Shown: one piece after another, positions 37,330 through 54,299 of the stretch | Position numbering within the stretch: the first letter of the stretch is position 1 | Layout of the letters: every line of letters starts with the position of its first letter | From: Candidatus Babelota bacterium | GTDB taxonomy: Bacteria > Babelota > Babeliae > Babelales > JAHIUU01 | Direction: 5' to 3' | Assembly: GCA_018817025.1 (NCBI GenBank) | Contig: JAHIUU010000006.1 | Span: forward strand, 6,831-70,830 | Length of the DNA: 64,000 bases | Notes under the pieces: model-generated | What the model was told of the DNA's origin: nothing | The model's input: only the letters and a program-made list of their open reading frames with translations | Database searches by the model: none | Translations under genes and position numbers: made by a program

Positions 37330-39684
37330 CTATTTTTTGTATCCACATTCTTTATCTGGACACGAGTAACTCTCGCTCTCATCCTTGCCTTTGGTGACTA
37401 GCAGGTACGGCGATTTACACTTTGGACAAGGCTCTTCTAGAACCTGGCCAAAAATAGCAAACCGACACTTTGGATAGCCTGAACAACCCCAAAAACTACC
37501 GCCTCGCCACTTTCGTTTTACCAGCTTACCTTGACACTTCGGACAAACCATCTTGAGCACTTCTTGGTGGATGTATTTACACTCCGGATAACCTGGACAG
37601 GCCCAGAACGGACCATACTTACTCATTTTCTGAGCAAGGGTCTTGCCGCAATTCGGACAGGCAAGCTCGCTACTTATCTTCGTTCCGGTTTGCTTTTGAA
37701 GAACAACCGCCCCAGATTCATCTCGGGTGAAATTTGAGGTGAATGTACATTCTGGGTATCCGGAGCAACCGGCGAACTGACCTGCTTTTCCAAACCTTAC
37801 AAGTAAATCGCTTTTGCATTTCGGACACTGCAGGCCTGTCTTGACCGCCTCTTTCTTGCCGTCTTTGCCAGCAAACTCTTTTAAATCTTTTTTGAACTCT
37901 TTATAGAACTCATTAAGCACGTTATCGCGCTCAATCTTGCCGTCCGCAATCTTATCAAGATCCTCTTCCATATGAGCCGTGAACGAAACATTGATAATAT
38001 CAGGGAGATTTTTGACAAGCAAACTGTTAACCGTTTTGCCTAGATCTGTTGGGAAGAACCGTTTTACCTTAGGATCTTTTTCGACATACTTTCGATTTTG
38101 AATAGTCGAAAGAATCGCGGCGTACGTACTTGGTCGCCCAACCCCCTTCTTTTCAAGCTCTTTAACAAGGGTTGCCTCTGAATATCGAGGTGGCGGTTGC
38201 GTAAAATGTTGTTTCCCGGCAGCTTTCTTCAGCTCAACATCATCTTTCTCTTTGATATCTTTTGGAATGTTTACAACATTCTTACTCTCTGCGTCTTCAA
38301 CTGCGTACACCTTTAAAAAGCCATCGAAAACAAGCGTCGAGCCGGTCACCCGAAAGAGATACTTTCCGCCCTTCAGAGAAACCTGTCGTTGAAAATATTC
38401 AGCCTTGCTCATCTGACAGGCCATAAAACGCTTCCAAATAAGTGAATACAGTTTTGTTGAAGCCGAATCAAGATATTTAGCCGCAACCTCTGGTGTCACC
38501 TCAACGTTAATTGGACGAATCGCCTCGTGCGCATCCTGTGCGCCCTTCTTTGAATAAACGTTAGTCACCTTTGGCAAATACTTTTCTCCGTAATTTTTGG
38601 AAATGAACGCTCGCGTCTCTTTAAGTGCCGTATCAGAAATCCGAAGTGAGTCAGTACGCATGTAGGTGATAAGTGCTTCCGGCTTGGATGGATCAGAAAG
38701 AGGAAGACCTTCATATAATTTTTGCGCAATCGTCATCGTTCGACTAACCGAAAATCCCAATTTATTATATGCGTCCTGCTGCAACGTACTGGTCATAAAT
38801 GGAGGAAGCGACGATTTAAGCCGATCTTTTTCGGAAATCTTATCAATAATAAAAGACTGTTTTTTTGCATCAGCAAGTACTTTGTCCGCCTCCCCCTTAT
38901 TTTTTAATGCGCACTTCTTCCCGTTTATGGTAACAAGTTCAGCTTCAATGTCAGTCTTTGCCATATAAAAGACACCATGAATCGACCACGACTCTTCCGG
39001 CTTAAAATTAACAATCTCTTCATCGCGGGTACAAACAAGAAGAAGGGCCACCGACTGCACTCGTCCAGCCGAAAGCCCTTTCATAATTTTTTTCCATAAG
39101 ATAGGTGATACCTCGTACCCAACCCATCGGTCTAATACTCGCCGGGCCTGCTGCGCCCGAACCAAGTTCATGTCGACGGTCGATTTATCTTGAATCGCCT
39201 GAGTAATCGCAGGTTCTGTTATCTCGTTGAATGTAATTCGATAAATCTTCGACGGATCCTTGATAACCTTCTCAATCTCTCCGCCAATGTGCCACGAAAT
39301 AATCTCACCCTCACGGTCAGGGTCAGAAGCCAGATAGACCTCCTTGGCACGACTAGCCTGTTTGCAAATATCAGCAATCACAACCGCTTTATCTTTAATC
39401 GGCACATAGGTCAATGTAATTGATTTACTTTTTGGATCAACCTCAACACCAAGCTTACGCGCAGGCAAATCTTTAATGTGTCCAAATGTCGACATAATTC
39501 GAACATCTTTACCCAAGAACTTTGATATTGTTTTGATTTTTGCAGGAGATTCTACAATGAGAAGTTTTTCCACGTCACCAGCCACCTTCTGACGAAGCGC
39601 ACCAGCCCTCCGTGTCATTCGTTTGGTTATTTTTTTGGTTGTTTTCTTCGCAACCGCCTTCTTTTTCGTTTTCTTTTCCGCCAT
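37330..39684 (-). CDS. topA: DNA topoisomerase I
   Basis: The Toprim start is LLIVESPAKIKTISKFLG, and the active-site region is ...ITYMRTDS. There are four C-terminal C4 zinc-ribbon repeats (CPKCKSDL...CSGYPEC etc.). Confidence 0.95.
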   Translation of the reverse strand: MAEKKTKKKAVAKKTTKKITKRMTRRAGALRQKVAGDVEKLLIVESPAKIKTISKFLGKDVRIMSTFGHIKDLPARKLGVEVDPKSKSITLTYVPIKDKAVVIADICKQASRAKEVYLASDPDREGEIISWHIGGEIEKVIKDPSKIYRITFNEITEPAITQAIQDKSTVDMNLVRAQQARRVLDRWVGYEVSPILWKKIMKGLSAGRVQSVALLLVCTRDEEIVNFKPEESWSIHGVFYMAKTDIEAELVTINGKKCALKNKGEADKVLADAKKQSFIIDKISEKDRLKSSLPPFMTSTLQQDAYNKLGFSVSRTMTIAQKLYEGLPLSDPSKPEALITYMRTDSLRISDTALKETRAFISKNYGEKYLPKVTNVYSKKGAQDAHEAIRPINVEVTPEVAAKYLDSASTKLYSLIWKRFMACQMSKAEYFQRQVSLKGGKYLFRVTGSTLVFDGFLKVYAVEDAESKNVVNIPKDIKEKDDVELKKAAGKQHFTQPPPRYSEATLVKELEKKGVGRPSTYAAILSTIQNRKYVEKDPKVKRFFPTDLGKTVNSLLVKNLPDIINVSFTAHMEEDLDKIADGKIERDNVLNEFYKEFKKDLKEFAGKDGKKEAVKTGLQCPKCKSDLLVRFGKAGQFAGCSGYPECTFTSNFTRDESGAVVLQKQTGTKISSELACPNCGKTLAQKMSKYGPFWACPGYPECKYIHQEVLKMVCPKCQGKLVKRKWRGGSFWGCSGYPKCRFAIFGQVLEEPCPKCKSPYLLVTKGKDESESYSCPDKECGYKK

Positions 39685-49334: not shown

Positions 49335-50438
49335 ATGAAGGTGGAACAATATCTCTTTTATCTTTTGTTTTTACTCGTTGGAACGCCAGCACTTCAAAGC
49401 GAAGTGAACCTTAACAATACTGGTGACCTCTTAGCCCAGTCGGCCGTCTCAATCTCGCAGCTCAATCTTCTCCACAACTCTCTTACTGAACTTAACCAGC
49501 AAGCGCCATCGCCAAAGATCGAGGGCGACATCGCTATGATCGAAGCAATTCTCGAGACAATCCAGGTGTCCATTCATGAACTCAACAGCGTAGAACAACT
49601 TGACCTACGACCAAACGACGAAAAAGACAACGAAGAAAACCAACAACCAACCCCTGAACAAATCGTTCAGGCAAACCAACAACAGATCATTGATAATCTT
49701 ATCAATGCAATCGAACAATCAAATGCAACCATTGAAAAATTAACGCGGCCAAACCGATGGAAAAATATAAAAATTGGTATATACCTAGTCTCCGGCACCG
49801 CTGCCGCTATAGGGGTAATCGTCCTTGGCTACCAGGCCTATAAAAAAATAAAATCGTTCTTCATGGCCCCAATCGAGGAGATGGACAAAGAGATCGAACA
49901 ACAAATAAAGGAAGTCTCCAAACTAGGCGACCAATTAACAGAAAACGTCGAAAACCTCAAAGACAATCTTCAACCTATAAAAAAAAGAACAAACGAAATA
50001 AAAAAAGCCGTTAAGGGAGGAATAAAAGTCCTCGATAATGTTCTTAAAAACGACTTTCCCAAACTCAAGGACGAAATTAACGAGAAAATTGCAACATTTC
50101 GAATTCTAGAAGAACTACGCAACATACGATTACGCGAAAAAGAAAAAATAGACGAGCTCGAACAAGAAATAAAGCGCCTGAAAAAACAAACTCAAACAAA
50201 TGATCAAGAACAAAACAAAAAAATCAGCGAACTAAAACAAAAAATGAAACGAGAAAGCTCTCACATGAAAGTTCACAGTCAACGATTGGATCTTTTGCTA
50301 GAAAACGATTTGATCTTAGCCAAGGAGCATTTTTCAAATAGACTTAAACTCTGCGAAGCCAGAGAAAAAATGGGGCTTAACAACTCGCCAATAGAACGAA
50401 CAGAAAATCAGCTAGAGAAGATTGTTGGTCCTAAATAG
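49335..50438 (+). CDS. Hypothetical signal-peptide / single-TM / coiled-coil protein
   Basis: G-rich RBS, signal peptide MKVEQYLFYLLFLLVGTPALQS and a central TM IGIYLVSGTAAAIGVIVLGY are present. The C-terminal half is a K/E-rich coiled coil. Its TAG stop is the first triplet of repeat copy A. Confidence 0.4.
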   Translation: MKVEQYLFYLLFLLVGTPALQSEVNLNNTGDLLAQSAVSISQLNLLHNSLTELNQQAPSPKIEGDIAMIEAILETIQVSIHELNSVEQLDLRPNDEKDNEENQQPTPEQIVQANQQQIIDNLINAIEQSNATIEKLTRPNRWKNIKIGIYLVSGTAAAIGVIVLGYQAYKKIKSFFMAPIEEMDKEIEQQIKEVSKLGDQLTENVENLKDNLQPIKKRTNEIKKAVKGGIKVLDNVLKNDFPKLKDEINEKIATFRILEELRNIRLREKEKIDELEQEIKRLKKQTQTNDQEQNKKISELKQKMKRESSHMKVHSQRLDLLLENDLILAKEHFSNRLKLCEAREKMGLNNSPIERTENQLEKIVGPK

Positions 50439-50470
50439 CCTAGGGCTTCCCGTCATGGGTTTTAAGGGCG
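50436..50470 (+). repeat. Repeat copy A (TAGCCTAGGGCTTCCC...GGTTTTA...)
   Basis: TAGCCTAGGGCTTCCCGTCATGGGTTTTAAGGGCG. The first 16 nt are identical to copy B, and about 28 of the first 34 positions match without gaps. It begins on the TAG stop of the preceding gene. Confidence 0.7.
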
Positions 50471-50502
50471 GGTCACGCCCATCCCAATCCCGTTCGCCTA
50501 GC

Positions 50503-50534
50503 TTGTCCGCCTGCCCCGAGTGTCCTCCGTAGCT
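50503..50534 (+). repeat. GC-rich motif copy 1 (TTGTCC...TGCCCCGAGTGTCC...CGTAGCT)
   Basis: The 14-nt core TGCCCCGAGTGTCC at 50512-50525 recurs at 50629-50642. The flanks TTGTCC and CGTAGCT are also shared. GC content is visibly higher than in the surrounding sequence. Confidence 0.6.
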
Positions 50535-50612
50535 CGAAGAGCGCAATGTCATCAACTTAAGAGATTTGTCCCAATTCTATGACAATGTTATTCTGGTTAT
50601 GATCAATCTCGT

Positions 50613-50652
50613 TTGTCCCGAGCCCGCTTGCCCCGAGTGTCCCCACGTAGCT
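50613..50652 (+). repeat. GC-rich motif copy 2
   Basis: TTGTCCCGAGCCCGCTTGCCCCGAGTGTCCCCACGTAGCT has the same core and flanks as copy 1 with an 8-nt insertion. One frame reads VCPEPACPECPH, compared with SLSACPECPP in copy 1. Confidence 0.6.
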
Positions 50653-50719
50653 TTAGCGTAGTGGGATGTATCGAGGGGTCTAGAAATTCTAAACAGTAAA
50701 CCAGGCCACCAGTTTCGCC

Positions 50720-50747
50720 TTGACATAAAACTTTCCCGTTTCATACT
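50720..50747 (+). promoter_or_regulatory. Candidate sigma70-type promoter of the toxin-like gene
   Basis: Perfect -35 TTGACA (50720-50725), a 16-nt spacer, then CATACT. It lies about 40 nt upstream of GGGAGG and the ATG at 50786. Confidence 0.4.
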
Positions 50748-50785
50748 AAGCCAAGTTTGTATGCTATTTTATGGGAGGTTTTGCC

Positions 50786-51415
50786 ATGAGAGAGCCTATC
50801 TTATATCAAAAGAACATTGTCACGGCCCGCTTGAAGCGGGCTCTTTTTTTTGTCCAAATAATTTTTCTATCTGGCACATGCTTCGCAAATTTTGATCGTT
50901 ACATGACCGCAATTACCCAAGCAAATTGGACCGGTTCTGTTCTTTGCACAAATAATTTGAGATCGTTTATGCGCGAAGGACACGAAACCCTGGGGAGCCC
51001 TGGTTGGGCACAAAGTCAATCCTGCCACACAAACTCCCATAAACAACATGAATTCAAAACCCCACAAAGCTTGCTGGTCAAAAACCATATCAACCCAAGT
51101 ATCTTTTTAGAGTTACAAAACGTTGCCTATCGCAATATGCCAACCGTCCTGAAAAACAAGTTGCCAAGCAAGCTCGTCGAAATGAAACAGTTGTTGCAGA
51201 AGTTTTTCGATAAATTCGATTCCTGCGAAGAATTCAGAAAACACGCTTCTCAGTTTTTACGGGGTTGGAATCTACAAATCGAAAAAAGTCGGCAAGAAAA
51301 AAGTGTTTGGTCATCGCAAAAAAATTCCCGCACTCAAGCACTATGCAGGCCATGCATTCAGAGCCGCCTGCGAAGCAATAAAAAATATAAAAATCTCTTT
51401 GACAACTCTCTGTAA
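50786..51415 (+). CDS. N-terminal fragment of a secreted toxin-like protein (frame 2)
   Basis: GGGAGG lies 7 nt before the ATG at 50786. The product starts MREPILYQKNIVTARLKRALFFVQIIFLSGTCFA (Sec-type signal). The reading is sensible up to ...FLRGWNLQIEKSRQEK, then turns to low-quality sequence where frame 3 becomes sensible. Confidence 0.45.
   Translation: MREPILYQKNIVTARLKRALFFVQIIFLSGTCFANFDRYMTAITQANWTGSVLCTNNLRSFMREGHETLGSPGWAQSQSCHTNSHKQHEFKTPQSLLVKNHINPSIFLELQNVAYRNMPTVLKNKLPSKLVEMKQLLQKFFDKFDSCEEFRKHASQFLRGWNLQIEKSRQEKSVWSSQKNSRTQALCRPCIQSRLRSNKKYKNLFDNSL
50825..50851 (+). terminator. Intrinsic-terminator-like hairpin inside the signal-peptide codons
   Basis: GCCCGC-TTGAA-GCGGGC followed by TC and T8. 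It lies 39 nt downstream of the ATG at 50786, inside the codons for ARLKRALFFV. Confidence 0.4.
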
Positions 51416-52172
51416 CAATCTTCTACAGACTGAGATTGGCGAACCAGCCCGGTATTTTCTCGGTCGATTTATGATGGGGCTCAGTGAATCTGGCATTGAT
51501 ATTCAAACTGTTCTAAAAAAAGAACTCATAGAAAACCGAAGCAACTTTGCCCCAGGATTTCTACAAAAAGTAAAATTTCAATCAGTCAAAGAACGCCTTG
51601 GAGACGTCATACAGCTTCTATCAAGGACAACCGTTCATGCGTCTGTCATCATAGTTTCAGTAGCAGCAACTGCAATAATAATAGAAGCCGGCGTCACAGC
51701 CGCCACGGGAACACTAGGCGCCATCGCCGCCAAAAATTTATTCGAACCACTCGCTCTCAGCATAAATCCAGATGGTACCGCAGCTATAGCGCAAGCGGCT
51801 TCATCAGGTGGTTCCGTATGGCAGGCAATCGCGACCTCAATTGGACAGGCAGCTCAAGCCGTTTATGGAGTTCTAGAACAAACAGGTAATTTCTTTGCAG
51901 CTATCGGTGATGGCAGACAAAAACCACCTTCCACGCCAATAGGAAGAAGGGGGCAACCACTGAATTGCTCTGGTTCCAATTCTGCAAAAATAATTAATGG
52001 TAGAGTCTTTACAGGTCACGCTCTTGATAGAATGCAGGGACGGGGCATAACGCCATCGATAGTTGAAAGCGTCATAAAAAATGGCGTGGCTCTTGCTGGC
52101 AAAACCCCTAGTACAACTGCTTATACATTTAAAAATGTTAAGGTTATTATTAATAATCAGGTGATGTTGTAA
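51303..52172 (+). CDS. C-terminal fragment of the toxin-like protein (frame 3) ending in an HAxDRMxxRGI module
   Basis: This frame is open from 51186. It overlaps the previous ORF across the A-rich tract 51281-51325. It has an Ala/Gly-rich hydrophobic segment (ASVIIVSVAATAIIIEAGVTAATGTLGAIAA). The C-terminus reads ...INGRVFTGHALDRMQGRGITPSIVESVIKNG...VKVIINNQ. Confidence 0.5.
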   Translation: MFGHRKKIPALKHYAGHAFRAACEAIKNIKISLTTLCNNLLQTEIGEPARYFLGRFMMGLSESGIDIQTVLKKELIENRSNFAPGFLQKVKFQSVKERLGDVIQLLSRTTVHASVIIVSVAATAIIIEAGVTAATGTLGAIAAKNLFEPLALSINPDGTAAIAQAASSGGSVWQAIATSIGQAAQAVYGVLEQTGNFFAAIGDGRQKPPSTPIGRRGQPLNCSGSNSAKIINGRVFTGHALDRMQGRGITPSIVESVIKNGVALAGKTPSTTAYTFKNVKVIINNQVML

Positions 52173-52199
52173 CCGTTATACCACAATAGGATTTGTATT

Positions 52200-52484
52200 A
52201 TGAAAGAAAAAAACAAAGAGCACTTGAAAATGATGGTAAAGCAAATGGAAAAATATCAAACAGGTTCGGTAACATTAAAAACAATGCACGAAAATTTATT
52301 GGGGCTATACGAGTCAACTGACCTCCCGAACGAGGCAAAAGAATTCAGTAATCTTTTTCATCAATACTGGGACCAAATTGAAGAAATAATTGCAATCAAA
52401 AAAACAAAACAGTATTTAGAAGAAATTAATAACGTTATAATTCCTGGTTTTAAACAAAAAATTTTAGATTTGATAAAAGCCTAG
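52200..52484 (+). CDS. Small cytoplasmic helical protein, candidate immunity protein
   Basis: 94 aa with no signal peptide. It starts 27 nt after the toxin-like ORF on the same strand. Its TAG stop is the first triplet of repeat copy B. Confidence 0.4.
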   Translation: MKEKNKEHLKMMVKQMEKYQTGSVTLKTMHENLLGLYESTDLPNEAKEFSNLFHQYWDQIEEIIAIKKTKQYLEEINNVIIPGFKQKILDLIKA

Positions 52485-52812
52485 CCTAGGGCTTCCCTGC
52501 AGAGGTTTTAGCGGCAAAATCAATAGCGTGCCAGACAAAGCCTATGACGTTTTGAACATTATAAATGAAACAGGAGCAGCCCCCGACGGATTTAAAGGAG
52601 GAAGACAGTTCTTGAACAATGGGAGAGGGGATGGACAGGCGTTTGTCAAAATTGGACTTTCATGGTCCTCTCCAAGCATAAAAAATATAATTTCGACAAA
52701 CACCTCTTTTGGAAGATCAAACAATATCGGCTTACATAGAGACGGACACTTTTTTTGTTCTTGCATTGAATTCATGGAAAGCAAAAAAAGAACACCTCTC
52801 AATAACTATTAA
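52477..52812 (+). pseudogene. Start-less fragment with barnase/RNase-Sa-like N-terminal motif (orphan toxin module?)
   Basis: The frame is open from 52477 with no ATG (the track start is the GTG at 52528). It reads KPSLGLPCRGFSGKINSVPDKAYDVLNIINETGAAPDGFKGGRQFLNNGRGDGQ.... The x-TL-x-I-x-x-G-x-x-P-x-G-(F/Y)-x-GG-x-x-F-x-N pattern recalls microbial RNases of the barnase/Sa/T1 family. The distal half is poorly conserved, with no obvious catalytic Glu. Confidence 0.35.
52482..52516 (+). repeat. Repeat copy B (TAGCCTAGGGCTTCCC...GGTTTTA...)
   Basis: TAGCCTAGGGCTTCCCTGCAGAGGTTTTAGCGGCA. See copy A. The spacing from TAGCC to GGTTTTA is the same 22 nt. Confidence 0.7.
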
Positions 52813-52913
52813 AAAAATAATAAAAATCGTACAAATAACTTTTTTGATTTTTTGTCCCAAACCCGTTACGTTTAAAAAAGTCATTTTTTCACCTTCTCGT
52901 AAGGGGCGTCGTT

Positions 52914-54299
52914 ATGAACCAATGTACCTTTGTCATCCTGGGCGCAACCGGCGACCTGACAAAGCGCAAACTAATTCCAGCAATGTATCACCTCATAAAA
53001 AAGAACAAAATTAAAAACTTTGCGCTTGTCGGTGCCGCAATCACCGATACAACAATACAAGATGTCTTACAAAAATCTCAAAAGTTTATTCAAAAACCTG
53101 ACCGTAAAGTATGGAAACAGCTTGAACAATCATCATACTACTGCCAACTCGACTTTCATAACCAAAACGATTTTCAAAAACTACAAAAATTACTAATACG
53201 TGTTGAAAAAAAACATAAATTACCAGGGAATCGAATCTTCTATCTCGCAACGCTTCCAGAACACTTCGAAACAATTACCGCAAATCTCTCTAAAAACAAA
53301 ATCGTTCAAAAAGGCAAACAAACGCTCTGGTCTCGAGTCGTATACGAAAAACCATTCGGACACGACTTAAAATCTGCACGAAAAATTAATCGCTGTATCG
53401 CAAAACTATTCGATGAATCTCAGGTGTATCGAATCGACCACTTCCTATTGGAAGAACTCGTCACCAACATCGCCCTCGTTCGATTCTCTAATCTCTTTTT
53501 CGAGCCTCTCTGGAACAATAAATATATAGAATCTGTGCAGATAGTTTTGCATGAAAAAATTGGCATCGAAGGTCGGGGAGCTTTTTACGATCACTACGGC
53601 GCGCTCAAAGACGTTGTCCAAAACCACATGCTTCAGATGCTCGCTCTCATCGCCATGGAACCTCCTAAAAAACTTAGCGGCGAATATATCAGAGACGCAA
53701 AAGTCCGAGTATTAAAAAGAGTACAACACAACGACATTTTACTAGGACAATACAAAGAGTATCAAGACGAACGAGGCGTCAATCCAAAGTCTCGTACCGA
53801 AACTTTTACCGCACTTCGTCTAGAAATTGCAAACAGGCGATGGAAGGGCGTACCATTTTTTTTAAAAACCGGAAAATGCTTATCAAAAAAAGAAACCAGT
53901 ATTCACATAAAATTTAAAAACCCAACATGCCTACAACAAGACTGCCCCGCAGAAAGCAACTATCTCACGATTCAGATTCAACCGCGAGAAGGATTTTACC
54001 TGCAGGTCAACACAAAAATTCCTGGAGAAACGCATAATGTAACACCGGTCAAGATGGACTTTTGTCACGCCTGCCACTTTGGGCCGAACACCCCTCAAGC
54101 ATATGAAACTCTCCTCTCAGAGGTTCTTGAAGGTGACCACTCTGTTTTCGTTCGATTCGATGAGATCGAATATTCATGGAAACTAATCGATAAAATCTTG
54201 GCAAAAAAACACCCTATCTATACATACAAAAAAAATACTGATGGGCCAAAACAGTTAGCTATATTTAATAAAAAAAATAATATCAGGTGGCGAACATGA
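52914..54299 (+). CDS. zwf: Glucose-6-phosphate 1-dehydrogenase
   Basis: The N-terminal NADP motif is FVILGATGDLTKRKLIPA. The active-site region is YRIDHFL. Confidence 0.9.
   Translation: MNQCTFVILGATGDLTKRKLIPAMYHLIKKNKIKNFALVGAAITDTTIQDVLQKSQKFIQKPDRKVWKQLEQSSYYCQLDFHNQNDFQKLQKLLIRVEKKHKLPGNRIFYLATLPEHFETITANLSKNKIVQKGKQTLWSRVVYEKPFGHDLKSARKINRCIAKLFDESQVYRIDHFLLEELVTNIALVRFSNLFFEPLWNNKYIESVQIVLHEKIGIEGRGAFYDHYGALKDVVQNHMLQMLALIAMEPPKKLSGEYIRDAKVRVLKRVQHNDILLGQYKEYQDERGVNPKSRTETFTALRLEIANRRWKGVPFFLKTGKCLSKKETSIHIKFKNPTCLQQDCPAESNYLTIQIQPREGFYLQVNTKIPGETHNVTPVKMDFCHACHFGPNTPQAYETLLSEVLEGDHSVFVRFDEIEYSWKLIDKILAKKHPIYTYKKNTDGPKQLAIFNKKNNIRWRT

Follow-up and report, generated by a model that had tools for sequence, protein, structure and literature searches.

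A truncated guanyl-RNase toxin tip, probably a non-functional remnant, behind a decaying polymorphic toxin locus

Results

Organization of the locus

The features of the locus are given in Table 1, with positions counted in the window, that is, the whole 64-kb stretch of DNA that was analyzed. A predicted polymorphic toxin gene is followed by a 94-aa gene and then by an open reading frame, the first part of which encodes a ribonuclease-like fragment. The locus is bounded by the housekeeping gene zwf, which starts after 266 nt of AT-rich DNA past the fragment; no further conserved ORF was found between the two.

Table 1. Positions of genes, motifs and sequence segments at the locus.
Feature	Position	Strand	Basis or remark
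Motif copy 1 (TAG CCTAGGGCTTCCC..GGGTTTTAAGGGCGGGT)	50436..50472	+	Starts at the stop codon of a 367-aa coiled-coil gene
Sigma-70-like promoter, TTGACA-16-CATACT	50720..50747	+	10/12 matches
Predicted polymorphic toxin gene: uncharacterised carrier and DUF4258-like tip, two frameshifts	50771..52189	+	P0003 mapping, translations
C-terminal toxin tip, DUF4258-like, last 9 codons (GDVVTVIPQ) out of frame	51921..52189	+	PF14076, related tips
94-aa gene, putative immunity	52200..52484	+	By position only; no Pfam match
Motif copy 2, degenerate after GGTTTTA	52482..52515	+	Translates as SLGLPCRGFSG
N-terminal half of PF00545-type tip, ~44 codons (KINSVPDKAYDVLNIINETGAAPDGFKGGRQFLNNGRGDGQ)	52516..52647	+	Profile, tblastn, phmmer
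Non-homologous tail of the open frame	52648..52812	+	No profile match in any frame; contains ATG 52774
zwf (glucose-6-phosphate dehydrogenase)	52914..54299	+	PF00479/PF02781 on the identical L001 gene

The upstream gene and its immunity candidate

Upstream of the fragment, two overlapping ORFs (50771–51415 and 51303–52172) together form one gene: with tblastn, residues 1–191 of the homolog P0003 map to 50786–51346, and residues 156–383 to 51264–51953 in a different frame. The first frameshift is an additional G in the G4 run at 51261–51264 (GGG to GGGG), and the frame from 51264 reads VGIYKSKKVGKKKVFGHRKKIPALKHYAG, matching the homologs. The second lies close to the 3′-end. The gene finishes with ...VIINNQVML*; because the adjacent frame carries GDVVTVIPQ*, the canonical end of related tips (e.g., P0009, ...VIINNSGDVITVIPQ), a single base appears to have been lost at ~52158–52160 (GGG to GG). 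An independent Logan assembly (L001, from SRR6514274) matches the window without a difference across 6,774 nt (100% identity), both frameshift sites included. The frameshifts in G runs could reflect either pseudogenisation or slipped-strand phase variation.

The window protein is 51–58% identical to homologs P0003–P0008 as far as ...GVVEQAGHLFCA (in the window: GVLEQTGNFFAAIG), beyond which their tips and that of the window diverge completely (alignment A1); the carrier/tip junction lies at ~51890–51920. P0003 and P0008 bear Colicin D tips (PF11429) followed by Colicin_immun (PF09204), and the other members of the carrier family have tips of unassigned type, each with a small gene directly after. 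Since a conserved carrier is combined with divergent tips, each followed by a small gene, we regard the locus as a genuine polymorphic-toxin system, and the upstream gene is predicted to be a polymorphic toxin with exchangeable C-terminal tips.

The tip presently carried by the gene scores 22.8 bits against PF14076 (DUF4258), under the cut-off of 25. Its relatives are tips found on Rhs-type and other toxins (P0009–P0012); two of these, P0011 and P0012, are followed by WapI-family genes (PF24716). The 94-aa gene that follows the window tip has a single homolog, 61% identical, on a 643-bp contig. It shows no similarity to WapI, and an assignment as WapI-type immunity was rejected; it is an immunity candidate by position.

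The region around the start of the toxin gene has two further peculiarities. A strong terminator-like hairpin followed by T8 (GGCCCGCTTGAAGCGGGCT CTTTTTTTT) is found at 50824–50852, inside the 5′-end of the toxin ORF, where it encodes ARLKRALFF, a peptide that the family conserves in its signal-peptide-like N-terminus; the hairpin is possibly an attenuator, or else a coding coincidence. Between motif copy 1 and the toxin gene (50470–50770) there is a 300-nt GC-rich (∼50%) non-coding stretch with an internal 19-nt repeat (50507–50525 and 50624–50642, 95% identity). The last part of this stretch, including the promoter, is conserved upstream of carrier paralogs on L003: the 34 nt around the promoter are 79–82% conserved in front of two of them.

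An open frame lacking its own start

The frame that contains the fragment is open from 52477, just 3′ of stops at 52471–52476, to a TAA ending at 52812, a total of 111 codons. It shares the last 8 nt of the 94-aa gene, in another reading frame; its translation begins KPSLGLPCRGFSGKINSVPDKAYDVLNIINETGAAPDGFKGGRQFLNNGRGDGQAFVK and in full reads KPSLGLPCRGFSGKINSVPDKAYDVLNIINETGAAPDGFKGGRQFLNNGRGDGQAFVKIGLSW...NNY*. The sequence-only reading had described this frame as devoid of ATG: this holds for everything before and inside the RNase-like part, but there is one in-frame ATG, at 52774, 12 codons short of the stop. The only start candidate for the RNase-like frame is GTG 52528, which would give a product of 94 aa (52528–52812). 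Inspection of the sequence revealed no usable Shine-Dalgarno for this codon, the closest GAGG being ∼22 nt upstream. Thus, with no ATG before 52774 and no Shine-Dalgarno for the GTG, the fragment lacks a translation-initiation signal of its own. An open frame of 111 codons is in itself unremarkable, since several spurious ORFs of 100–120 aa occur nearby; such ORFs are common in the window.

Homology to guanyl-specific RNases

The fragment had been said to recall the N-terminal half of microbial guanyl-specific RNases. Direct comparisons returned nothing: the 111-aa translation matched no Pfam family with hmmscan even at E≤10, and so did not reach the gathering score of PF00545, it matched no PDB chain with phmmer at E≤10, and BLASTP gave no alignment with RNase Sa or barnase. 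An exhaustive phmmer search of 1.84 billion (1.84e9) representative proteins, listed at E≤1e-3, returned 34 proteins, including the ORF itself (P0001). Four (P0013, P0019, P0020 and P0028) were rejected as spurious: these are repeat-rich proteins with multi-stretch matches, which for three of the four fall in the ORF tail; P0013, for instance, is a 3477-aa fn3/TSP3 protein. The remaining 29 all match query residues 12–60, with 45–59% identity and E values from 3.1e-8 to 8e-4.

Each of the 24 complete homologs continues for another 39–54 residues between the match and its C-terminus, and the proteins themselves are of very different lengths and have very different N-termini (Rhs/YD-type, PAAR-like and hydrophobic carriers). 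Such a placement behind varied N-termini is characteristic of the C-terminal toxin modules that polymorphic toxins carry. PF00545 (‘Ribonuclease’) was found above the gathering score in 9/9 homologs scanned, at profile positions ∼15–97. The search with PF00545 that had been suggested as a check therefore succeeds on the homologs and fails on the fragment itself. An intact homolog, P0034, matches RNase Sa2 (1py3, 9e-8), barnase (∼1e-4), binase and RNase Sa in the PDB, and through these alignments the window sequence DKAYDVLNIINETGAAPDGFKGGRQFLNNGRGDGQ aligns with SQAQDTLALIAKNGPYPYNRDGVVFENRES of Sa2 and with GGDIFSNREGK of barnase. The equivalences proposed from the letters alone, to barnase GGDIFSNREGKLP and to RNase Sa TLNLI...DGVVFQNRE, are the same pairings that HMMER gives with the intact homolog.

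A custom profile was built from the last 105 residues of the 24 intact homologs (106 positions; consensus ..VPqKA.DTL..I..TG.AP.GYKGGR.F.NDGRGGGQVLPktDa.GnPITYkEWDVNPYqkGVNRGaERlVtGSDGsAYYT.DHY.TF..i.). With filters off it scores 50.2 bits on the window at 52516–52647, covering profile positions 11–54 only. The closest intact tip, P0014, is 61% identical over 52522–52644 (tblastn). Nearly all of the positions that are invariant in the family are retained (P..a.d.L..i..tG.aP.G[FY]kGGr.F.N.GR..Gq), and the surviving segment corresponds to the helical part plus the base-recognition loop F-x-N-x-G-R. Both the N-terminal helix and this loop (F-x-N-R-E / F-x-N-D-G-R ... L-P) are homologous to those of bona fide PF00545 members. 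With some 30 phmmer homologs, PF00545 in each homolog scanned and the profile score, the proposed resemblance is borne out. Because the direct tests were negative, the link to PF00545 is transitive, running through the homologs; judged on these comparisons, the fragment is homologous to PF00545, yet functionally it would not be a member.

One apparent close relative was discarded. P0016, 60% identical, is encoded on L013 (3112 nt), a contig that is a perfect palindrome about the middle of the tip and thus an assembly artefact; the second half of P0016 is a reverse-complement translation.

The catalytic half and a barstar gene are missing

Profile positions 55–106 hold the Glu of Y-x-E-x-D, the Arg residues of RG-x-ER and the His of DHY-x-TF, which in the PDB alignments of P0034 correspond to Glu73, Arg83/Arg87 and His102 of barnase. 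All of these fall beyond the point at which window similarity ends in the P0034 alignment. No match to positions 55–106 was obtained in the six frames of 52400–52950 or of the whole window, in agreement with the earlier statement that the distal Y-x-E-x-D and D-H-Y-x-x-F features have been lost; the translated searches proposed for frameshifted remnants thus came back empty. Two stretches in the frame of 52472, RLSKLDFHG and QTISAYIETD, were considered as a frameshifted second half (compare VLPKTDAAG and PITYKEWD), but were rejected: neither gave a profile score, even with filters off. Since positions 55–106 find no match in any frame, the distal half is deleted, neither frameshifted nor merely mutated. 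About 42% of the toxin domain survives. The surviving 44 codons contain no stops and show no obvious decay, so the truncation may be recent.

In L002 the P0014 gene is directly followed by a Barstar gene (PF01337). No barstar-like sequence was found in the 64-kb window by tblastn with two barstar queries, which extends the earlier observation that no such ORF follows the fragment. Nor does the window contain a second RNase copy.

What remains of the open frame is of a different nature. GC content is 45% in the RNase piece, as against 33% in the ORF tail (52646–52812) and 31% in the spacer before zwf (52813–52913); in composition, the tail thus resembles intergenic DNA. Library matches to the tail involve only repeat-rich unrelated proteins (P0013 and others), and it is probably non-coding DNA upstream of zwf. 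The frame outside the RNase piece is translated non-coding DNA: a 3′-intergenic motif on the left and the AT-rich pre-zwf spacer on the right.

A 35-nt motif at the 3′-ends of unrelated genes

The motif takes the form CCTAGGGCTTCCC-N6-GGTTTTAAGGGCGGGT, with ∼35 nt conserved. The two copies at the locus (50436–50469 and 52482–52515) are 82% identical over 34 nt and contain a 16-nt exact core, similarity overall extending across ∼29–34 nt at 82–86%. A repeat shared with the upstream gene had been claimed: a second copy does exist, but it is not inside the toxin gene. Copy 1 is situated upstream of the promoter of that gene, outside both its coding sequence and its carrier/tip junction.

When JGI metagenome contigs were scanned for the pattern, the same motif appeared twice in a related genome, directly after the stop codon of lon (L018, 6626–6660, − strand) and 23 nt past the stop codon of an SbcC-like gene (L019, 546–580, − strand). 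The motif is thus located at or within ∼25 nt of the stop codons of four unrelated genes (the coiled-coil protein gene, the 94-aa gene, lon and the SbcC-like gene) in two related uncultivated genomes. No consistent stable structure was predicted that would make it a common RNA fold or terminator (z-scores near 0), and Rfam has no match in the locus. Because it also follows lon and the SbcC-like gene, the repeat is a general, lineage-wide 3′-intergenic motif, and the ‘peptide’ read from it is translated non-coding DNA.

The motif offers no route for grafting the RNase tip onto the carrier, since recombination between its copies would remove or insert the whole cassette. The suggestion of a tip swap at the repeat is not supported, given the position of copy 1, which precedes the promoter rather than the junction. 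Copy 2 ceases to resemble the other copies no more than 1–2 codons from where RNase homology begins, which indicates that the remnant, at its left breakpoint, either borders the motif or cuts it short.

Discussion

Origin of the fragment

We consider 52516–52647 to be a non-functional truncated remnant of a PF00545 polymorphic-toxin tip (a secreted guanyl-RNase) behind a decaying toxin/putative-immunity locus, and place the probability of this reading at about 85%. The locus as a whole appears to be decaying, since the toxin gene carries two frameshifts beside the truncated remnant. The history that we infer is one of orphan-tip displacement followed by deletion: the remnant would be an ancestral tip module displaced downstream as the DUF4258-like tip and its immunity gene arrived, and a later deletion would have removed the second half of the tip together with a barstar-type gene, up to the region upstream of zwf. 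The sequence-only reading had likewise spoken of a displaced, decaying toxin tip. That the fragment is start-less, truncated and placed behind a toxin/immunity pair stands; its former link to the carrier is hypothetical. No carrier-derived sequence precedes it (tblastn with carrier proteins matches only 50786–51953), and no member of the carrier family bearing an RNase tip was found. P0014 was considered as a sharer of the window carrier and rejected, its carrier being unrelated (hhalign probability 0.6%).

It is possible, although we think it unlikely, that the remnant was never joined to the upstream carrier at all, and either pre-dated a promoter–toxin–immunity cassette (50470–52484) inserted at the motif or hitch-hiked with incoming DNA. 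The lack of carrier homology in front of the fragment fits such a course of events, as does the fact that the nearest RNase-tip relatives are on unrelated carriers. The direct repeats of the motif, moreover, flank exactly this cassette, at 50436 and 52482, each from a stop codon. The case for insertion of a cassette is nevertheless weakened by the presence of the motif behind unrelated housekeeping genes in a related genome: two copies 2 kb apart are possibly plain 3′-ends. Only ∼29–34 nt are shared (82–86%), with copy 2 losing similarity after ∼30 nt, and no recombinase gene is found nearby in the window. More specifically, the motif could go beyond a passive 3′-UTR or terminator element and act as a lineage-specific recombination site for the insertion and excision of promoter–toxin–immunity cassettes; a mobile toxin cassette would then be delimited by the repeats at 50436 and 52482, and the RNase piece would have been left behind by an earlier occupant. 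This proposal is quite improbable. In barnase and RNase Sa the N-terminal helices of the fold cannot cleave RNA without the catalytic β-sheet. Because the half that contains this sheet is absent, the fragment would be non-functional whether it was displaced from the carrier or was never part of it.

That the GTG-initiated 94-aa ORF (52528–52812) is a real, independently expressed small protein is very improbable. The frame stays open for 111 codons and the ORF is present in public gene calls (P0001, predicted by one gene caller), but it is a singleton: a word-indexed search of 5.8e9 proteins retrieved only the ORF itself, which answers in the negative the question, raised earlier, of whether it is conserved. 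There are no full-length homologs, and all homology ends at about residue 60 of the open frame. The start lacks a Shine-Dalgarno, the GC content of the tail is intergenic, and spurious ORFs of 100–120 aa are frequent in the window. Half a barnase fold without the β-sheet is, in addition, unlikely to fold. For annotation this means that P0001 should not be treated as a protein-coding gene.

A spurious ORF might also resemble RNases by chance or through its composition, which would accommodate the negative Pfam, PDB and BLASTP tests and the low-complexity matches drawn by ORF residues 49–85 (P0013 and others). This idea has next to no probability and is effectively already refuted by the phmmer and profile results: ∼30 independent matches converge on one 45-residue segment of a single domain, with E values down to 3e-8 for the whole library, the profile score is 50 bits and nearly all family-invariant positions are retained.

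Comparison with known systems

Orphan CT modules are known downstream of CDI (cdiBAI) and Rhs loci, where they represent ancestral tip/immunity pairs displaced downstream upon acquisition of a new pair (Poole et al. 2011, reviewed in PMC9086364). Like these, the fragment is directly 3′ of a polymorphic toxin/immunity pair (it begins 32 nt past the stop of the 94-aa gene), has no translation start, differs in tip type from the main gene and plausibly descends from an older module that had to make way for a newer tip/immunity pair. Classical orphans, however, retain 5′ carrier homology (VENN or PxxxxDPxGL), encode an intact domain that has kept its toxicity and have an immunity gene of their own behind them, whereas the fragment has neither carrier homology nor immunity gene and keeps only ∼42% of the domain; moreover, the neighbouring carrier is neither CdiA nor Rhs.

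Relative to the PF00545 guanyl-RNases (barnase, binase and RNase Sa), residues 12–60 of the open frame correspond to the N-terminal helix and base-recognition loop. Unlike members of that family the fragment lacks the catalytic Glu (Y-x-E-x-D), the Arg residues, the His (D-H-Y-x-x-F) and a Pfam score. PF00545 tips of Rhs and other polymorphic toxins pair with barstar (PF01337), which the fragment lacks. Tips of the Colicin D and DUF4258/WapA-CT-like types belong to the family of the upstream gene and to relatives of the window tip, not to the fragment; they are accompanied by Colicin_immun or WapI immunity, which the 94-aa immunity candidate, not being WapI-like, does not match on the WapI side.

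The fragment adds one case to a familiar class of genomic debris, the truncated and orphan tips left over when polymorphic toxin loci exchange their tips. Its presence shows that a barnase-type toxin module was once available to this uncultivated diderm lineage. With two frameshifts in the main gene and a truncated orphan beside it, the locus is a polymorphic toxin locus being lost, and affords a small view of toxin turnover. Mild novelty is confined to the periphery, to an apparently undescribed carrier family and to the 35-nt motif at 3′-ends.

The carrier family and other observations

Attention is drawn to the carrier family, which bears Colicin D, DUF4258-like and other tips. No Pfam domain is recognized in the carrier, which starts with a signal-peptide-like stretch and contains a double hydrophobic segment at its centre. 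Two samples, JGI 3300014656 and ENA ERZ27247128, account for all the members found; one related genome has at least five paralogs, whereas the GTDB species genomes scanned yielded none, and the family is apparently small and undescribed.

Two more carrier paralogs, both on L003 (3447–4906 and 10001–11451), are split by frameshifts, one near the N-terminus and the other just before the Colicin D tip; frameshifts thus seem recurrent in the family. Also in L003 (5460–5519), a 20-residue piece (LPIDMNDQRWPSTEGWINAKM) of a P0007-type tip lies just 3′ of the P0006 immunity gene, fused to an otherwise unrelated 139-aa ORF; it is a second truncated tip fragment in the carrier family. In the related genome, MNT/HepT toxin–antitoxin pairs (PF01909/PF01934) repeatedly follow the toxin–immunity pairs of the family (L003 11951–12773; L014 and L017 2686–3454, 7896–8646), a recurrence that suggests a conserved larger cassette.

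The best AspRS match among the GTDB species genomes reached only 51% identity, with matches scattered over several phyla, and is uninformative as to lineage. Elsewhere in the window, TopA (37330–39684, − strand) scores 630 bits against NF004966, the chlamydial-type model of the topoisomerase I/SWI-domain fusion (cut-off 868); taken with the BamA and BatD/TPR genes, this is a hint of a diderm lineage that is chlamydia-like or related.
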